Assembly: GCF_030013595.1 (NCBI RefSeq)
Contig: NZ_CP122768.1
DNA length: 64,000 bases
Source of the DNA: Escherichia coli
GTDB lineage: Bacteria; Pseudomonadota; Gammaproteobacteria; Enterobacterales; Enterobacteriaceae
Direction: 5' to 3' (one strand)
The translations under genes were made by a program, and so were the position numbers. Shown piece after piece: positions 1 to 4,948 of this stretch. Position 1 is the stretch's first letter. The number at the start of each line of letters is the position of its first letter. A model generated the notes under the pieces. That model did not search any database. It worked only from the letters and a program-made list of their open reading frames with translations, and had not been told where the DNA came from.

Positions 1-1
1 A

Positions 2-232
2 GCGGCGGCAAAGTGGCAGCAGCTACAACGCGGAGCCGCAGCGTTCTCCATCACATTGGCACGTGGACGCGCAGAACTCTACCCCGAAATGCATGGCACG
101 GTAACAGGCTTTAAAAGCGAGATTGATAATCAGGACTGGATTATTGCGAAAGCCGAGCACACCATTGATAACAGCGGCTTTACCACGCAGCTTGAGCTTG
201 AGGCAAAAATCCCGGAATGGATAGCAGAATGA
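2..232 (+). CDS. Phage tail protein D (P2 gpD / late control D family), C-terminal 76 codons; 5' end lies outside the window
   Basis: Frame 2 is open from the window edge to TGA at 230-232. The translation ...KWQQLQRGAAAFSITLARGRAELYPEMHGTVTGFKSEIDNQDWIIAKAEHTIDNSGFTTQLELEAKIPEWIAE resembles the gpD C-terminus as I remember it. ogr lies downstream on the same strand, as in P2. Confidence 0.75.
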   Translation, partial: AAAKWQQLQRGAAAFSITLARGRAELYPEMHGTVTGFKSEIDNQDWIIAKAEHTIDNSGFTTQLELEAKIPEWIAE

Positions 233-396
233 GACTCTTAAATGTATTAGTCCAGACACGTACTAGCGGGCTAAACGGCACAGTCTTATCTGACCATCTG
301 CCCCTGACACAGAGCAGACGGTCCTTGATCTTACCCACTAATAATGGACGCGCGACTAATATAATTTATTGCTTTTTATTTATACCTCACTGAGAT

Positions 397-1032
397 TTAG
401 CGAGCTAATATATTCAAAGAATTTAACAATTGAGTGTCGAGTGTTTCAGTTGCAGGAATCGGTAATCCATTCGCAATGCGGTAATTTTTCACAGACAGCC
501 TTGTGGATGGCCCCATTATGCCGTCAATATTTCCGTTATAAAATCCCCTGTCCAGCAATGCGAACTGAACTCGCATAATCAATCGCTTACGTTTCTCTGC
601 ATCAGAAGCAAGCCCATTACTCGTACGGTTAACCTCTGAAGTTCCAACAGAACTCGTGTTAGTGGTTCTATTATTATCGTTAGAACGAAGTGCACGCACC
701 GAGGAAGAGGACGATGAGGAACTTGCACCTGAACTTGAAGAACCAGATGAACTTGGTGAGCTGTATGTTTTTGGATAATAGGGGGTACTTCCACCATAGT
801 ATCCACCACCTGATGAGGATCTATGAGAGCTATGGCTCCTATGAGAACTATGGCTTCGATGCCCTGCGATATAAAATGGGACTTCCGTGTTAAGTGGAGC
901 TATCACTAAATCATGCTCATTAAGAGTCATACCAGGTAAATCACTCGCTCCTGTAGATGAATCGCTTGCCCATACAGAATTGTTGAGAGCCAAAAATCCC
1001 GGAAGTAGAGCAGCAAAATTAAACTTTTTCAT
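397..1032 (-). CDS. hxsA: HxsA-like His-Xaa-Ser repeat protein: signal peptide, 5 HxS repeats, Ser/Gly/Tyr-rich linker, C-terminal peptidoglycan-binding domain (211 aa)
   Basis: Start ATG at 1032 overlaps the hxsC stop (ATGA). N-terminus MKKFNFAALLPGFLALNNSVWA-SD looks like a Sec signal peptide. HRSHSSHRSHSSHRS is encoded at 817-861. The C-terminal LIMRVQFALLDRGFYNGNIDGIMGPSTRLSVKNYRIANGLP looks like PG_binding_1. Confidence 0.75.
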   Translation of the reverse strand: MKKFNFAALLPGFLALNNSVWASDSSTGASDLPGMTLNEHDLVIAPLNTEVPFYIAGHRSHSSHRSHSSHRSSSGGGYYGGSTPYYPKTYSSPSSSGSSSSGASSSSSSSSVRALRSNDNNRTTNTSSVGTSEVNRTSNGLASDAEKRKRLIMRVQFALLDRGFYNGNIDGIMGPSTRLSVKNYRIANGLPIPATETLDTQLLNSLNILAR

Positions 1033-2141
1033 AAAATTGGTCTCGGTGATTGATGAAAACGGCCTTTTGAGGAACTGAAATAGCCAGCACAGGAAGGCTT
1101 CTGAGTACATTCATCACATTCTTTTGGATAGTAATTTTTCCAATCAGAGATCGACTGAACAGCAAGCTCCCTAGCCCTTTCAGGAAGATAACACAAAGGA
1201 TAATTAAAAATTGTCAGAGGTATGCCTGACCTGTATGCAGCGTCTATGGCAGAGATTATTTTCTCACTATAACTACTGTGATCAATGAAGATGGTGGACC
1301 AGTTTTTTCGTGCCCAACCGATAGGCTCCAACCCCATAAGGGAAATCTGATTGATGTTGGAGAACACACGGCCAGCGAATTCTACGATATCATCCAATTC
1401 GGTATAGTTAGCCAGTGTAGGAATAACTCTAAGTTCGATATTAATCCCCAAGTTTCCTGCATTGATTAACCCTTTAACCGTTTCATTAAATGCGCCATCA
1501 CTCCCTACCAGATGATCATGCACAAGTGGTCTTGATGAGTAGAGCGGGATACCAAAGGTGATTTTGATCTTTTTGCTTCGCTTTGCCATTTCCTGTGTAA
1601 AGTTGGTATCAGCAAATTTGCGTCCGTTTGTTAAAACATGTAAAGCAGTATCTGGTGAATTCTCGATGATAAAATCAATGAAGTGAAGGAAGTCATCCCC
1701 ATATAGCAAAGGTTCACCACCGCTGACCCCAACAACTCCGTTCAAGCCAAATGAAGCTATAGCAAGAGCTGATTGGGTAAGTAGCCAGTCATCATTTATT
1801 TTCTTTGGTGGCTGCGAACAAAACAGACACAAGTTATTGCAGCGTTCCGTAACTAAGACAGTATTATGATTGGCTTTGCGTGACAGAATAACGCGTATCA
1901 TATTGCCATTGTTGATTATCCCAATATCTCCATCTTCAATTGACTCAAATAATTCAGTGCTAATAACAGAGAAATCAAAGCATGGTGGAATGGCATCATT
2001 ATTGCCTTCAGCAACTACTAGCAAATTGGGCAAAAAGAATAAAGGGTTCACTGGTTTTTGTTTGCATAACCGATAGAACCCCGTGGGCACGTTCTCTGTA
2101 GAAGCAAAATGAAAGATATCGTTCCTGATAACCTCAGACAT
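1029..2141 (-). CDS. hxsC: HxsC-like radical SAM maturase (370 aa)
   Basis: CX3CX2C motif CNNLCLFC. Second radical-SAM enzyme in a four-gene hxs-type operon. Overlaps hxsB by 8 nt and hxsA by 4 nt. Confidence 0.8.
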   Translation of the reverse strand: MSEVIRNDIFHFASTENVPTGFYRLCKQKPVNPLFFLPNLLVVAEGNNDAIPPCFDFSVISTELFESIEDGDIGIINNGNMIRVILSRKANHNTVLVTERCNNLCLFCSQPPKKINDDWLLTQSALAIASFGLNGVVGVSGGEPLLYGDDFLHFIDFIIENSPDTALHVLTNGRKFADTNFTQEMAKRSKKIKITFGIPLYSSRPLVHDHLVGSDGAFNETVKGLINAGNLGINIELRVIPTLANYTELDDIVEFAGRVFSNINQISLMGLEPIGWARKNWSTIFIDHSSYSEKIISAIDAAYRSGIPLTIFNYPLCYLPERARELAVQSISDWKNYYPKECDECTQKPSCAGYFSSSKGRFHQSPRPIL

Positions 2142-3522
2142 ATGCCCATCCTTTTAGCATCTCAGCCTTCGAACCACCCTCTGAGATGCAGTTCATCAGA
2201 TACCTGAACATCCCCTTGTGATATTGACAAAACGTTGAACGACTCCTATCACCGACAGGCTCACCCTGTACACTTATGTTCTGGCATGGATCTGAACCAC
2301 AAAATGGTTGATATGCACATGTATCACAACCTGGCAGAGCAAAATTGAACGATGAACTCAATACTGCGTTATAGTAAGGACTATCAGAAAATGATAGCGT
2401 CTTAACTTCACCCGCACTGAACTCCGTTTCAGGATTCACCTTCTGCAACATACGGCTCTCATCGCTACCATATACTCGACCGTCATAATTGAAAAGAATA
2501 CTGTTAAGCACGACTCCACTTGGAGACTTTAAATCCGCATAACCACTAAAACCGGGATTGAAGATCCTTTTCAGATGAATGGAGGCCGAATGTTCCACAA
2601 CCCTTATCCCTTCATTATTAATCTTAAGGATTTCATCTATCAACGAGGCATAGAAGCTGAAGTATTCGTCCATAGAAAAGGTGAAAGAAGCTTTTTGTGC
2701 AAACCCATAGGGACTAACAGGTCGGATAAACATGTCCTTGAGACCAAGAGACAAGTGAGCCTGAACAATCGATTCAGGACGTCTGATAAGCTCTTTAGTA
2801 ACTGTAGTAACCGTTGCAACGCGGCCAGCACCTAAAGAGTGTTTGATAGCCTCTACCCCTGACACTGTTCTACTGTACGCAAGCCCACGACCAAGAATTC
2901 GATTACTGTTGTGAACAACTTCCTCACCATCAAGCGACACAGAGAACGTTATGTTCCGGTCTCTCGACCATTCAATCATATCCTCATTCAAGACAGACAG
3001 ACTTGATGCCACCACCATCTCAAAATTGGTTCTTCCCAGCGTTTCAGCACATTGATCATAGATGCTCTGAATTAAATCAAACCGCAAGAGAGGCTCCCCA
3101 CCCTGTATCTCTATTTTGTAAGGTGGCGTTGATAGTTTTTTAATAGCCGAAATAATATCGGGGATGAGCTCAGGATTTAGGTCGTAACCTGAGGCATTAA
3201 CAGAAGCTCTACTAACCTGGCAATACTTGCATGTATGGTCACAACGTAATGTGGGTACAATCATGAAAATTGGCCTGACAGCCAGTTCATTCATCAATCG
3301 TTTTGCAAAAGCAGAACTTAAAGCATAGGGAGTTATAGCAGATGAGCTTTCACTGGTTATGAAAAGCTTACTTTCTAGCACGTTTGATTGCTCCGAACTA
3401 ATTCGCTCATCAGAAAGATCAATAAGGTCTTGCTCACCAATGAAATGATGAAAACCTGCAAGGTTGCTTATAAACACCTGTCCATTAGGCAATCTGTCAA
3501 AATTAAATGGCATCAATTCCAT
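2134..3522 (-). CDS. hxsB: HxsB-like radical SAM / SPASM-domain maturase (462 aa)
   Basis: CX3CX2C motif CDHTCKYC. C-terminal Cys cluster PGCDTCAYQPFCGSDPCQN...FCQYH is typical of SPASM/twitch auxiliary-cluster domains. Its start overlaps the hxsD stop (TAATG). Confidence 0.8.
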   Translation of the reverse strand: MELMPFNFDRLPNGQVFISNLAGFHHFIGEQDLIDLSDERISSEQSNVLESKLFITSESSSAITPYALSSAFAKRLMNELAVRPIFMIVPTLRCDHTCKYCQVSRASVNASGYDLNPELIPDIISAIKKLSTPPYKIEIQGGEPLLRFDLIQSIYDQCAETLGRTNFEMVVASSLSVLNEDMIEWSRDRNITFSVSLDGEEVVHNSNRILGRGLAYSRTVSGVEAIKHSLGAGRVATVTTVTKELIRRPESIVQAHLSLGLKDMFIRPVSPYGFAQKASFTFSMDEYFSFYASLIDEILKINNEGIRVVEHSASIHLKRIFNPGFSGYADLKSPSGVVLNSILFNYDGRVYGSDESRMLQKVNPETEFSAGEVKTLSFSDSPYYNAVLSSSFNFALPGCDTCAYQPFCGSDPCQNISVQGEPVGDRSRSTFCQYHKGMFRYLMNCISEGGSKAEMLKGWAYV

Positions 3523-3836
3523 TATGAAAGCCTCTCATCAACACTGCGAAGCACTTTATGGACAATAGAGTCTCTCAACGCCCCTGTTTTATGCTGTAGC
3601 TTTTCTCGCAAAGAGTAATCATTAAGCAGCCTATCGAATTCATAAAGGAATTTGGGATTATCGTTTTCAAAAGAGATTATCCAGTGGGAAACGTCTTCAT
3701 GGAGTTTCCATCGAGTAAGCGGAGTCATCCAATATAGACTATTGCGTATAACCCATTCAGAATATAGTTCTTTCTCAAACACTCTTTCGCTCATTGCAAT
3801 TATCTTCCAATACAAATATTCATGATCAGCAACCAC
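3522..3836 (-). CDS. hxsD: HxsD-like protein (LLNDYxLRE family), 104 aa from GTG 3836 (alternative ATG at 3794)
   Basis: Contains FDRLLNDYSLREKL, which matches the LLNDYxLRE signature that names the HxsD family (TIGRFAMs, from memory). First gene of the operon. AGGAAAAA lies 11 nt upstream of the GTG. Confidence 0.75.
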   Translation of the reverse strand: MVADHEYLYWKIIAMSERVFEKELYSEWVIRNSLYWMTPLTRWKLHEDVSHWIISFENDNPKFLYEFDRLLNDYSLREKLQHKTGALRDSIVHKVLRSVDERLS

Positions 3837-3866
3837 TTTAAAGCGGATTTTTCCTATGGCAACAAT

Positions 3867-3892
3867 AATATAACATATCCATAGATATGTTA
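3867..3892 (-). promoter_or_regulatory. Candidate hxs promoter (-10 TATATT at 3867-3872) with a 9+9 bp perfect palindrome TAACATATC-cata-GATATGTTA (3871-3892) in the spacer
   Basis: Read directly from the hxsD-ogr intergenic region. The palindrome position is operator-like. The -35 element is weak. Confidence 0.35.
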
Positions 3893-4046
3893 CAGATGCC
3901 TTGTTTCCCGTTGACTAATACATCACAACGTTAGTAATGGCTATCACAATTGTGAACTTCCACTTTTCACACAAGACAAGCTGTTAATTGGAATCTGTAT
4001 CAGTACAACTTAGAATATCGGAAGCACCACAGTAAGGGAGGTCGCT

Positions 4047-4307
4047 ATGTTCCGTTGTCCGCTTTGTGGCGCATCCGCCCGAATCCGCACCAGTCGTCCG
4101 GAAAATGATTCAAACACCGTGCGGCAAAAGTATTACCAATGTAACAACCTAGAATGCGGCGTATGCTTCTCAACACTGGAAGCTTTCCATAAATTCACAT
4201 CAAAACACGCCTCCGGCGCTCACTCTTCAGAAGGTATCCCGTGGCATGAACTGCCAGCTTCACACAAAGGAAACAATCAGATGAGTTTGCCCTTACCTCA
4301 AAATTAA
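4047..4307 (+). CDS. ogr: Ogr/Delta-family zinc-finger late transcription activator (86 aa)
   Basis: MFRCPLCGASARIRTSR...YYQCNNLECG gives the CX2C-N22-CX4C Ogr zinc motif. Strong RBS AAGGGAGG. Lies downstream of gpD as in P2. Confidence 0.8.
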   Translation: MFRCPLCGASARIRTSRPENDSNTVRQKYYQCNNLECGVCFSTLEAFHKFTSKHASGAHSSEGIPWHELPASHKGNNQMSLPLPQN

Positions 4308-4497
4308 CAGGCAGAATTGCCGGAGTAACAAAAAAGAGATAGATTACGCGCGGGTGCCTTTCGGCTGATGGTCGGAGGGAATACCCGAAGGCCAGATGTG
4401 GAAAGGCCCCGGAAAACATTTCTGTTTAACCGAGGCCCTAACCGCATTACCTTGACAAGTGAAAGGTTAGCGCCTCTCCGGAAAAGGAGCAAGTGCT

Positions 4498-4638
4498 ATG
4501 TCGCAAAAATCGCTTACGGCCATCATGTTCTGCGTGACGGCAATCCTCATCATCTGGATGTTGCACGGTTCGCTGTGCGAAATACGGATGAGATTCTGGG
4601 GAGCGGAGTTTGCGGCGTTCTTACAGTGTAAGCAGTAA
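4498..4638 (+). CDS. hok: Hok/Gef-family type I toxin (46 aa)
   Basis: MSQKSLTAIMFCVTAILIIWMLHGSLCEIRMRFWGAEFAAFLQCKQ has one TM helix plus the Hok-family SLCEIR motif. AAGGAG RBS. Too short for the ORF track. The overlapping 87-aa frame 4368-4631 is positioned like mok. A GACGGGGGA-gcaa-TCCCCCGTC hairpin follows at about 4650-4671. Confidence 0.75.
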   Translation: MSQKSLTAIMFCVTAILIIWMLHGSLCEIRMRFWGAEFAAFLQCKQ

Positions 4639-4726
4639 GGAAACCGCGACGGGGGAGCAATCCCCCGTCAATCGGTTGCCAGGGTAAGGTCGATAAGGCA
4701 CCCTATCTCACAGACATGAACAACAA

Positions 4727-4759
4727 ACCCGCAACGTAAAAACTGCGGGTTTTCTTTTT
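4727..4759 (+). terminator. Rho-independent terminator closing the ogr/hok side
   Basis: Stem ACCCGCA/TGCGGGT followed by TTTTCTTTTT. Confidence 0.6.
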
Positions 4760-4901
4760 GGTGTCCTTACTGACTTGAAACGGTGATCAGACTATAAGAC
4801 AAAGCCCACAATGTAGCGGGCTTACTCCCCTCTCCCTCCACTGAATGTGGACACATGGTGGAACGAAGATATATAAAACATTATAAATCAATCGGTTACT
4901 G

Positions 4902-4928
4902 AAAGAAAAAAGGCCGCAGAGCGGCCTT
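4902..4928 (-). terminator. Rho-independent terminator downstream of the 4949-5164 gene
   Basis: Stem AGGCCGC-aga-GCGGCCT followed by a T-run on the minus strand (A-run 4904-4910 on plus). Confidence 0.7.
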
Positions 4929-4948
4929 TATGGTTTATTGACAATTGA

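Follow-up and report, generated by a model that had tools for sequence, protein, structure and literature searches.

A hxsDBCA operon between gpD and ogr of a P88-like Escherichia coli prophage: a probable phage-borne lineage of the HXS anti-phage system

Close to the start of a 64,000-nucleotide stretch of Escherichia coli DNA (contig NZ_CP122768.1 of assembly GCF_030013595.1, hereafter the window), four tightly packed minus-strand genes are found between two plus-strand genes of a P2-family prophage. What do these genes encode, and what are they doing in a phage? An initial annotation, made from the sequence, had read them as a complete His-Xaa-Ser (HXS) cluster, hxsD-hxsB-hxsC-hxsA, carried as prophage cargo, and had listed anti-phage defence and superinfection exclusion among its guesses. 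The cluster is real, was correctly identified and is already known: its genes are named in RefSeq, and a literature search shows that the system has a characterised function. The accompanying statement that no chemistry, product or phenotype had been published is incorrect, as phenotype, mechanism, localisation, a modification seen by mass spectrometry and a prophage survey were all reported in 2026 (PMC13128918). Very probably, positions 397-3794 hold an intact HXS anti-phage operon that is accessory cargo in the slot between the tail gene D (gpD) and ogr of a P88-like prophage. The cluster is therefore best treated as a published defence system whose annotation is correct, rather than as an open lead. 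The addition made here is modest and consists of a distinct prophage allele lineage, a hotspot between gpD and ogr, and two attachment (att) sites for the carrier.

The four proteins were searched against the profile hidden Markov models (HMMs) of NCBIfam release 20 with their curated equivalog cut-offs. HxsD scored 90.6 bits against TIGR03976 (cut-off 50), HxsB 558.9 bits against TIGR03978 (cut-off 370), HxsC 398.4 bits against TIGR03977 (cut-off 267.9) and HxsA 161.1 bits against TIGR03979 (cut-off 121.65). Since all four exceed their cut-offs, the identification is far past chance. The open reading frames (ORFs) follow one another on the minus strand (3836..3522, 3522..2134, 2141..1029 and 1110..397), and their arrangement as hxsD-hxsB-hxsC-hxsA with overlapping junctions was confirmed by a sequence check. 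The stop codon of hxsD overlaps the start of hxsB in a TAATG at 3520-3524, hxsB and hxsC overlap by 8 nt (ATGTCTGA, 2134-2141), and the hxsA start is overlapped by the hxsC stop in an ATGA at 1029-1032. The two larger genes, hxsB (2134..3522, 462 aa) and hxsC (1029..2141, 370 aa), encode radical S-adenosylmethionine (SAM) maturases that also match Pfam Radical_SAM, the former being SPASM-like. HxsB contains CDHTCKYC (C94/C98/C101) and the C-terminal cysteines C399/C402/C408/C413/C432/C445; HxsC contains CNNLCLFC (C101/C105/C108) and a C-terminal cluster of C317/C342/C345/C351. The last ORF extends mechanically to 1110 (237 aa); the real start of hxsA (397..1032) is the ATG at 1032, which gives a protein of 211 aa. 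Junctions and sequence motifs, including the HRS-HSS-HRS-HSS-HRS array of HxsA, are all present as initially described.

For HxsD, the accessory protein, the family assignment stood but the length of 104 aa did not. The most likely start is the ATG at 3794 (3522..3794, 90 aa) rather than the GTG at 3836. The GTG is an unlikely start because it is poorly conserved, reading GCG in two other lineages and being lost in the diverged upstream sequence of the remaining ones, and because the TIGR03976 match covers the 104-aa form only from residue 20 onwards. RefSeq annotates the ATG as the start in E. coli O26:H11 strain 11368. In the 90-aa form, the motif LYW is located at residues 20-22 and LLNDYSLRE at 56-64.

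Membership in two other groups was rejected. PADLOC v2.0.0 (2023) contains no Hxs models, and the window proteins gave weak, generic radical SAM matches to its prokaryotic viperin (pVip) models; the pVip matches are partial (23-29 bits over the generic radical SAM core), and HxsC reaches 21.2 bits against the NCBIfam viperin model (cut-off 180). Known maturase families for ribosomally synthesized and post-translationally modified peptides (RiPPs) were likewise dismissed: the best non-Hxs match, to PapB, has 70.4 bits against a cut-off of 340, and the closest solved structure to HxsB, CteB (5wgg), is found with an E-value of just 8e-6. The Hxs enzymes nevertheless share with the radical SAM/SPASM maturases PapB, CteB, anSME and CcpM the N-terminal CxxxCxxC core, the C-terminal auxiliary Cys clusters and a genetically linked, ribosomally made substrate. 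Apart from scoring far under the cut-offs of these families, HXS differs in its substrate, a 211-aa exported protein with a folded peptidoglycan (PG)-binding domain instead of a short leader-core peptide, in its need for two paralogous radical SAM enzymes plus HxsD, and in its product, which is shifted by +8 Da. Hxs works partly like the RiPP-type radical SAM/SPASM systems but is not a member of them.

The function of the system was described by Li et al. (Nat Commun 2026; PMC13128918; preprint 10.64898/2026.01.06.697848), who report HXS as an anti-phage defence that blocks phage DNA entry. The hxsDBCA genes of E. coli strain MEM, cloned with their endogenous promoter, inhibited 110 of 113 coliphages, mostly at least 1000-fold. 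Exceptions are T4, one other Tequatrovirus, and P1. Each of the four genes is needed, adsorption is normal, and the cells do not show abortive-infection behaviour. T7 mutants that escape HXS map to the ejectosome proteins gp15 and gp16, and entry of T7 DNA, followed by DpnI/Southern analysis and electron microscopy, is delayed from about 8-12 min to 30-50 min. Cleavage and periplasmic accumulation of HxsA require intact HxsB, HxsC and HxsD, for which the mutations C98A/C101A and C399A/C402A (HxsB), C105A/C108A and C342A/C345A (HxsC), and Y23A and D61A/R65A (HxsD) were used; HxsD is pulled down by HxsC. High-resolution mass spectrometry coupled to liquid chromatography located a +8 Da change on SHRSS inside the HxsA peptide 48-78. 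Replacing any single HxS repeat by AAA abolishes defence, which also depends on the HxsA signal peptide and PG-binding domain, and periplasmic HxsA binds DNA (all PMC13128918). The authors call HXS the first bacterial defence that stops phage DNA at entry; it is also the first with a radical-SAM-matured protein effector. The guessed role in defence or superinfection exclusion has thus been demonstrated experimentally, on another allele, and the description of HxsA as a presumed substrate is right but incomplete, as HxsA is the effector as well (PMC13128918).

Transferred by homology from that work, the following mechanism is proposed for the window. The operon would have a promoter of its own and be transcribed in antisense to the late genes of the phage. 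The radical SAM enzymes HxsB and HxsC, the latter with bound HxsD, would mature the HxsA precursor in steps that include processing of its N-terminus and a +8 Da modification of SHRSS (69-73) in the last HxS repeat. Mature HxsA would gather in the periplasm, anchored to peptidoglycan through its C-terminal domain, an anchoring that is the model of the paper (PMC13128918). Its five basic HxS repeats would then stall incoming phage DNA, leaving adsorption unaffected and without abortive infection. In a lysogen, HXS would act as a broad superinfection-exclusion or defence module, to the benefit of both the host and the resident prophage.

How far this transfer can be trusted depends on the relationship between the two alleles. 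The HXS of strain MEM consists of the same four families as the window operon, in the same D-B-C-A order and with the same coupling, an order kept in 99.6% of HXS systems (PMC13128918). Its HxsB and HxsC have the same lengths of 462 and 370 aa, and the mutated cysteines are present in the window at the numbers given in the paper (HxsB C98/C101/C399/C402 and HxsC C105/C108/C342/C345). In HxsA, the signal peptide, the 23-47 segment, the five HxS repeats and SHRSS are identical between the two, and the window protein contains the 22-residue signal-peptide segment, the five repeats and SHRSS within the chymotryptic peptide 48-78. Every residue found to be essential in the paper is conserved in the window. 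The alleles differ in that HxsA of strain MEM has 214 aa instead of 211 and its HxsD numbering is shifted by +2. On these grounds activity of the window allele is strongly suggested, though by transfer from a different allele. The window allele is related to the tested one but is not the same.

For the tested allele (strain MEM, CP012378), the degree of identity was bounded by proxies and numbering clues. The HxsA of the paper ends at residue 214, and its HxsD numbering runs two ahead of the 90-aa form. Both properties are found in strain 1218KP (L016), whose allele encodes an HxsA of 214 aa and has, immediately ahead of the annotated hxsD start, an in-frame ATG GCG; the lineage of about 91% identity shares the +2 HxsD start, but its HxsA has 211 aa. 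Between the window and the L016 proxy, identity amounts to 86% for HxsA, 80% for HxsC, 74% for HxsB and 63% for HxsD. The L016 copy is located in an integrative mobilisable island, beside a DUF6119/TIGR04141 gene that the prophage copy does not have. Judged by these differences in sequence, the prophage allele is a distinct lineage of HXS.

An independent sign of function is provided by the substitution pattern of hxsA. The encoded protein starts with a signal-peptide-like N-terminus (MKKFNFAALLPGFLALNNSVWA) upstream of the HxS repeats and consists of a predicted signal peptide (1-22), the repeats, a Gly/Tyr- and Ser-rich linker and a C-terminal PG-binding domain. The N-terminal 22 residues agree in length and position with the published signal peptide (1-22) and do not vary among the four main E. 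coli lineages; the five repeats HRS-HSS-HRS-HSS-HRS occupy residues 58-72, with SHRSS at 69-73. Codons 1-101 (window 730-1032, minus strand), which span the signal peptide, the 23-57 segment, the repeats and a Gly/Tyr/Ser-rich stretch, show 31-39 synonymous changes but no residue change relative to the lineages L002 and L016, and 40 synonymous changes with a single residue change relative to L004. In the same comparisons hxsB has 25-119 non-synonymous differences, and the Hxs enzymes are 74-95% identical. With 31-40 synonymous against 0-1 non-synonymous differences, strong purifying selection on the N-terminal half of hxsA is therefore indicated. Recent recombination as a cause of the identical N-terminus is ruled out by the same synonymous differences. 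Besides the HxS repeats, the signal peptide and the 23-57 segment are constrained too, which suggests that the maturation/export machinery recognises the N-terminal half of HxsA in its entirety.

The operon was also said to have its own promoter. A consensus scan found a promoter-like block on the minus strand (3865..3893), with a -35-like GTAACA at 3893-3888 and an extended -10-like TGTTATATT at 3875-3867. GTAACAT (3893-3887) and TG.T.TAT (3875-3868) are invariant in six aligned lineages, some of which are only 72% identical overall, and the homology with island-borne copies spans 397-3895, that is, the genes and about 100 bp upstream of them. The block is conserved wherever the module occurs, and the region 3893-3867 fits a sigma-70 promoter with an extended -10 element that travels with the module; promoter function itself is a prediction. 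A perfect 9-bp inverted repeat, TAACATATC-TATG-GATATGTTA (3867-3893), spans the -35-like and the extended -10-like elements. Of the other five lineages in the alignment, three retain its outer TAACA/TGTTA halves and the remainder read TGGTG or TGTTG; the repeat may be an operator or a coincidence.

The placement of the operon as phage cargo was borne out by comparison with phage P88, a Xuanwuvirus of the Peduoviridae. Up to position 229, the plus-strand 3' end of gpD (1..232) shares 96% identity with phages P88 and 500465-2, and on the other side of the operon lies ogr (4047..4307, plus strand), a gene for an Ogr/Delta-like zinc-finger late-gene activator according to the RefSeq annotation of the 99.5%-identical O26:H11 locus. 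In an alignment with the P88 locus (blastn; L007), window positions 1-229 correspond to 3001-3229 and 4007-4759 to 3241-3993; the cargo insertion of 3.78 kb (230..4006) thus takes the place of 11 bp in P88. The GC content of this insertion is 0.39-0.44, compared with about 0.50 across most of the remaining window. The flanks are adjacent, without hxs, in P88 and in several other sequenced relatives, while phage 500465-2 has a different antisense gene of 340 aa at the hxs position.

E. coli O26:H11 strain 11368 matches the first 4,935 bases of the window with 99.5% identity, and in this strain RefSeq already names hxsA-D and describes the gpD homologue as a contractile injection system protein of the VgrG/Pvc8 family. 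There, the operon belongs to a 35.7-kb prophage between btuC and ihfA, flanked on both sides by copies of a 25-bp exact direct repeat that lies within GAAAGAAAAAAGGCCGCAGAGCGGCC. It is a P2-family prophage that looks complete from its gene order: integrase, repressor and replication genes are followed by portal, terminase, capsid, lysis and tail genes and finally by gpD, hxs, ogr and hok. That the opposite orientation of the upstream tail genes in O26:H11 is an inversion artefact was rejected, as P88 and 500465-2 have the same layout. Viral contigs of 35-36 kb in IMG/VR contain the operon at 99.5-99.6% nucleotide identity, near one contig end. The hxs genes are accordingly found as prophage cargo between the core genes gpD and ogr, antisense to both, within an att-bounded prophage.

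In the window, the same element ends in an attR core at 4901..4926 (GAAAGAAAAAAGGCCGCAGAGCGGCC). This core is followed directly by lambdoid DNA (from 4907), not by ihfA as in O26:H11, and the lambdoid element bears its own near-identical terminator hairpin (AAAAAGGCCGCAGAGCGGCCTTT) at the junction (4901-4935). In the source genome, the hxs prophage therefore appears to have inserted into another prophage, at a secondary att-like site, giving a junction that is absent from the best-matching complete E. coli genomes. Depending on the strain, the carrier is found at one of two att sites, which implies its recent mobility.

The frequency of hxs in prophages, for which the initial annotation had proposed a survey, was determined in complete E. 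coli genomes. The genes are present in 155 of 5,426 genomes. The window allele, at 99% identity or more, accounts for 45 of the 155 (29%), and RefSeq names the hxs genes in these genomes; alleles of about 90-91% identity are found in 46 and alleles of about 72% in 64. Among the records with at least 99% identity, exactly 45 match 80% or more of the 4.7-kb query, which includes both flanks, and owing to the matching counts these are taken as the same genomes with the same gpD-ogr context. This phage-carried HXS lineage thus occurs in 45 of 5,426 complete E. coli genomes, including enterohaemorrhagic O26:H11 and many porcine enterotoxigenic strains. The share of 29% agrees roughly with the published survey of 4,541 E. 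coli genomes, which placed 77% of the operons outside and about 23% inside prophages predicted by geNomad (PMC13128918).

All five non-prophage contexts that were opened are integrative mobilisable islands with integrase or recombinase genes. Three are located at ssrA and one beside paoD, the site of the fifth lying outside the stretch fetched; four of the five have an annotated relaxase. The islands also hold other defence-type genes, such as ABC-three-component systems and Abi/TOPRIM genes. In each of them, a DUF6119/TIGR04141 gene ('sporadically distributed protein') adjoins hxsA on the same strand (L002 7289-8932, L003 7120-8932, L004 7375-8982, L016 6284-7933, L017 6376-7980). This gene may be an accessory linked to hxs or else serve defence on its own; the paper reports a working clone of the four hxs genes and makes no mention of it (PMC13128918). 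Every E. coli hxs context examined is therefore a mobile element, either a prophage or a mobilisable island, which adds nuance to the description of HXS as 'typically chromosomally encoded'.

Outside E. coli, one genome each from 32 species was examined for markers within 8 kb of hxs. In so far as the genes were detected, they follow the order D-B-C-A. Relaxase, recombinase-ParB, DUF6119 or integrase markers lie close to about half of the loci, the DUF6119/TIGR04141 gene being found in about a quarter of the 32, and the rest have none of the tested markers. Neither gpD nor ogr nor a sheath gene is located within 8 kb of hxs in any of these species, and for this reason the prophage-borne lineage looks like an E. 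coli-specific capture.

The position between gpD and ogr is not reserved for hxs. Relatives of ogr were found in 211 IMG/VR stretches, the best 80 of which, with 97-100% identity, were kept, and 79 loci with an ogr of at least 97% identity (L018-L097) were surveyed for the content of the slot. It is empty in 34 of the 79, with a 42-bp spacer between gpD and ogr. The other 45 are filled with 1.0-3.8 kb of cargo at a GC content of 0.33-0.43, belonging to at least 17 unrelated clusters, and hxs is found in just two of them. PADLOC recognised Shedu SduA (691 bits, L018), a PifA-like NTPase (216 bits, L022), the candidate PDC-S31 (93 bits, L029) and, weakly, a PsyrT-like phosphoribosyltransferase (PRTase). 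The presence of Shedu, the PifA-like protein and PDC-S31 in the same slot of sister phages counts for the reading of hxs as defence cargo, and the junction of gpD and ogr is a hotspot of such cargo. PADLOC gave no match for about a dozen cargo types, which are candidate defence genes or systems: a 930-aa protein with a 120-aa partner (L095), proteins of 500 aa (L028), 478 aa (L090), 384 aa (L064), 527 aa (L030), 356 aa (L025), 321 aa (L038), 274 aa (L050) and 229 aa (L026), and one of 340 aa (L043) that agrees in size, strand and slot with gp34 of phage 500465-2. The slot in P88-like phages is thus a place to seek further defence genes.

In the parts of the literature that were searched, the hotspots described for P2-family phages are the cos-proximal old/tin locus, Z/fun in the tail genes, int-att and int-primase (PMC9122126; PMC13586616; 10.1101/2024.10.15.618418). 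The gpD-ogr slot resembles such accessory hotspots in that low-GC, swappable defence cargo is situated between core genes and is replaced by other cargo in sister phages, but it is not one of the two classical loci, old/tin and Z/fun. By term search, Hxs, radical SAM and ogr are not mentioned in the Nucleic Acids Research 2026 text (PMC13586616), and Rousset 2022 (PMC9122126) contains neither 'radical' nor 'gpD'; the searched parts of the P2-hotspot papers make no mention of Hxs.

Several observations weigh against an active defence operon in this prophage. The tested allele is likely of the island-borne type, only 63-86% identical to that of the window. Expression of hxs from the prophage in a lysogen is presumed from sequence features, and the final step, electrostatic capture of DNA, is a model even in the original paper (PMC13128918). 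The C-terminus of HxsA matches Pfam PG_binding_1 marginally, with 22.0 bits against a gathering score of 23, though this is backed by SleB-domain matches, among them one to the PG-binding domain of SleB (6tci) with an E-value of 0.0018. Moreover, IS2, IS3, IS600, ISVsa5 or ISCro1 insertion sequences are found within or beside hxs in many prophage copies (genomes H1-H3, H19-H30 and H61), some of which have a split hxsC or hxsB; this hints at recurrent inactivation and possibly at a fitness cost of HXS. From such copies it might be argued that the operon is a decaying or silent passenger of a defective prophage, intact only through recent acquisition and of no defensive use to the lysogen. The O26:H11 prophage would fit this picture, as its gpD is annotated with 795 bp compared with 1101 bp in P88 and is preceded by a pseudogene fragment, so that this copy may be tail-defective. 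In addition, no isolated Peduoviridae phage in the collection bears hxs, the only matches in isolated phage genomes being Leptospira phage LE1 (30.5%) and one faecal contig (27.5%). However, all four ORFs are full length with equivalog scores, the allele is kept at 99% identity or more in the same slot of 45 complete genomes, the two att sites point to recent mobility, hxsA is under strong purifying selection and the promoter-like block is conserved. A silent passenger is accordingly considered improbable.

The genes could also be active without serving defence, if HxsA were matured for a periplasmic metal-binding or cell-wall-remodelling role or as a secreted RiPP-like product and resistance were a side effect. 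His-rich repeats are able to bind metals, HxsB resembles the SPASM peptide maturases PapB, CteB and anSME, and the C-terminal domain of HxsA is similar to those by which SleB and other lytic enzymes bind PG. This is hard to reconcile with the published phenotype, which is broad, reaches at least 1000-fold for most phages and requires all genes, the HxS repeats, the signal peptide and the PG-binding domain (PMC13128918). Each E. coli context examined is a mobile element, most with other defence genes, and known defence genes occupy the same slot in sister phages. A non-defence role is thus very unlikely indeed, and an intact HXS anti-phage operon carried as prophage cargo is the preferred reading.

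If the operon is active in the lysogen, it comes close to phage-encoded superinfection exclusion (Sie). Phage-encoded Sie systems that block DNA entry include SieA of P22 and gp15 of HK97. T4 Imm/Sp is cited as a further example by Li et al., who set HXS apart from Sie as a defence system intrinsic to bacteria and describe it as 'typically chromosomally encoded' (PMC13128918). HXS has no sequence relationship to T4 Imm/Sp, P22 SieA or HK97 gp15; these are limited to relatives of the carrier phage, whereas HXS acted broadly on 110 of 113 phages, and its effector needs two radical SAM enzymes for maturation. The contrast between Sie and HXS drawn in the paper is blurred by the prophage-borne lineage. 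A bolder interpretation is that prophage HXS is a phage-encoded, broad-spectrum superinfection exclusion system, contrary to the intrinsic bacterial framing, and that the gpD-ogr slot is a rich, little-noticed defence hotspot with candidate new systems; our judgement on this is evenly balanced. If it is true, P88-like phages would either be naturally insensitive to gatekeeping by HxsA, as P1 and T4 are, or accept self-exclusion.

Further features of the locus concern its surroundings. The convergent spacer between the stop codons of gpD and hxsA contains a hairpin with a 13-bp stem (292..323), and the minus-strand RNA of 225-400 folds with -54.7 kcal/mol (z = -4.47 versus shuffles). A consensus terminator scan called nothing between gpD and hxsA; the hairpin is possibly a bidirectional terminator, though without a U-tract. 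Between ogr and the att core, a plus-strand hok/sok-type toxin-antitoxin module is located (4352..4638), with a sok-like RNA at 4352-4511 and the hok coding sequence at 4498-4638. The sok match to Rfam RF01794 has 49.4 bits (E 4.8e-9) and is under the gathering score of 59, and a Hok/Gef coding sequence is annotated in O26:H11. Copies of about 80% identity are found in many Shiga toxin-converting lambdoid phages.

From 4907 to about 27000, the window contains a Rac-like lambdoid prophage whose integrase adjoins yccA. Its genes include holin/lysis genes, a methylase, Q, RusA, DUF968, ParDE, replication genes, racR/ydaS/ydaT, dicB and an exonuclease. There are no tRNA genes in the window, and the prophages here are thus not tRNA-integrated. 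Besides its 795-bp gpD, the O26:H11 prophage (L001 12657-13229 and 19385-20232, upstream of the part that matches the window) has a serine acetyltransferase gene at the Z/fun-equivalent position.

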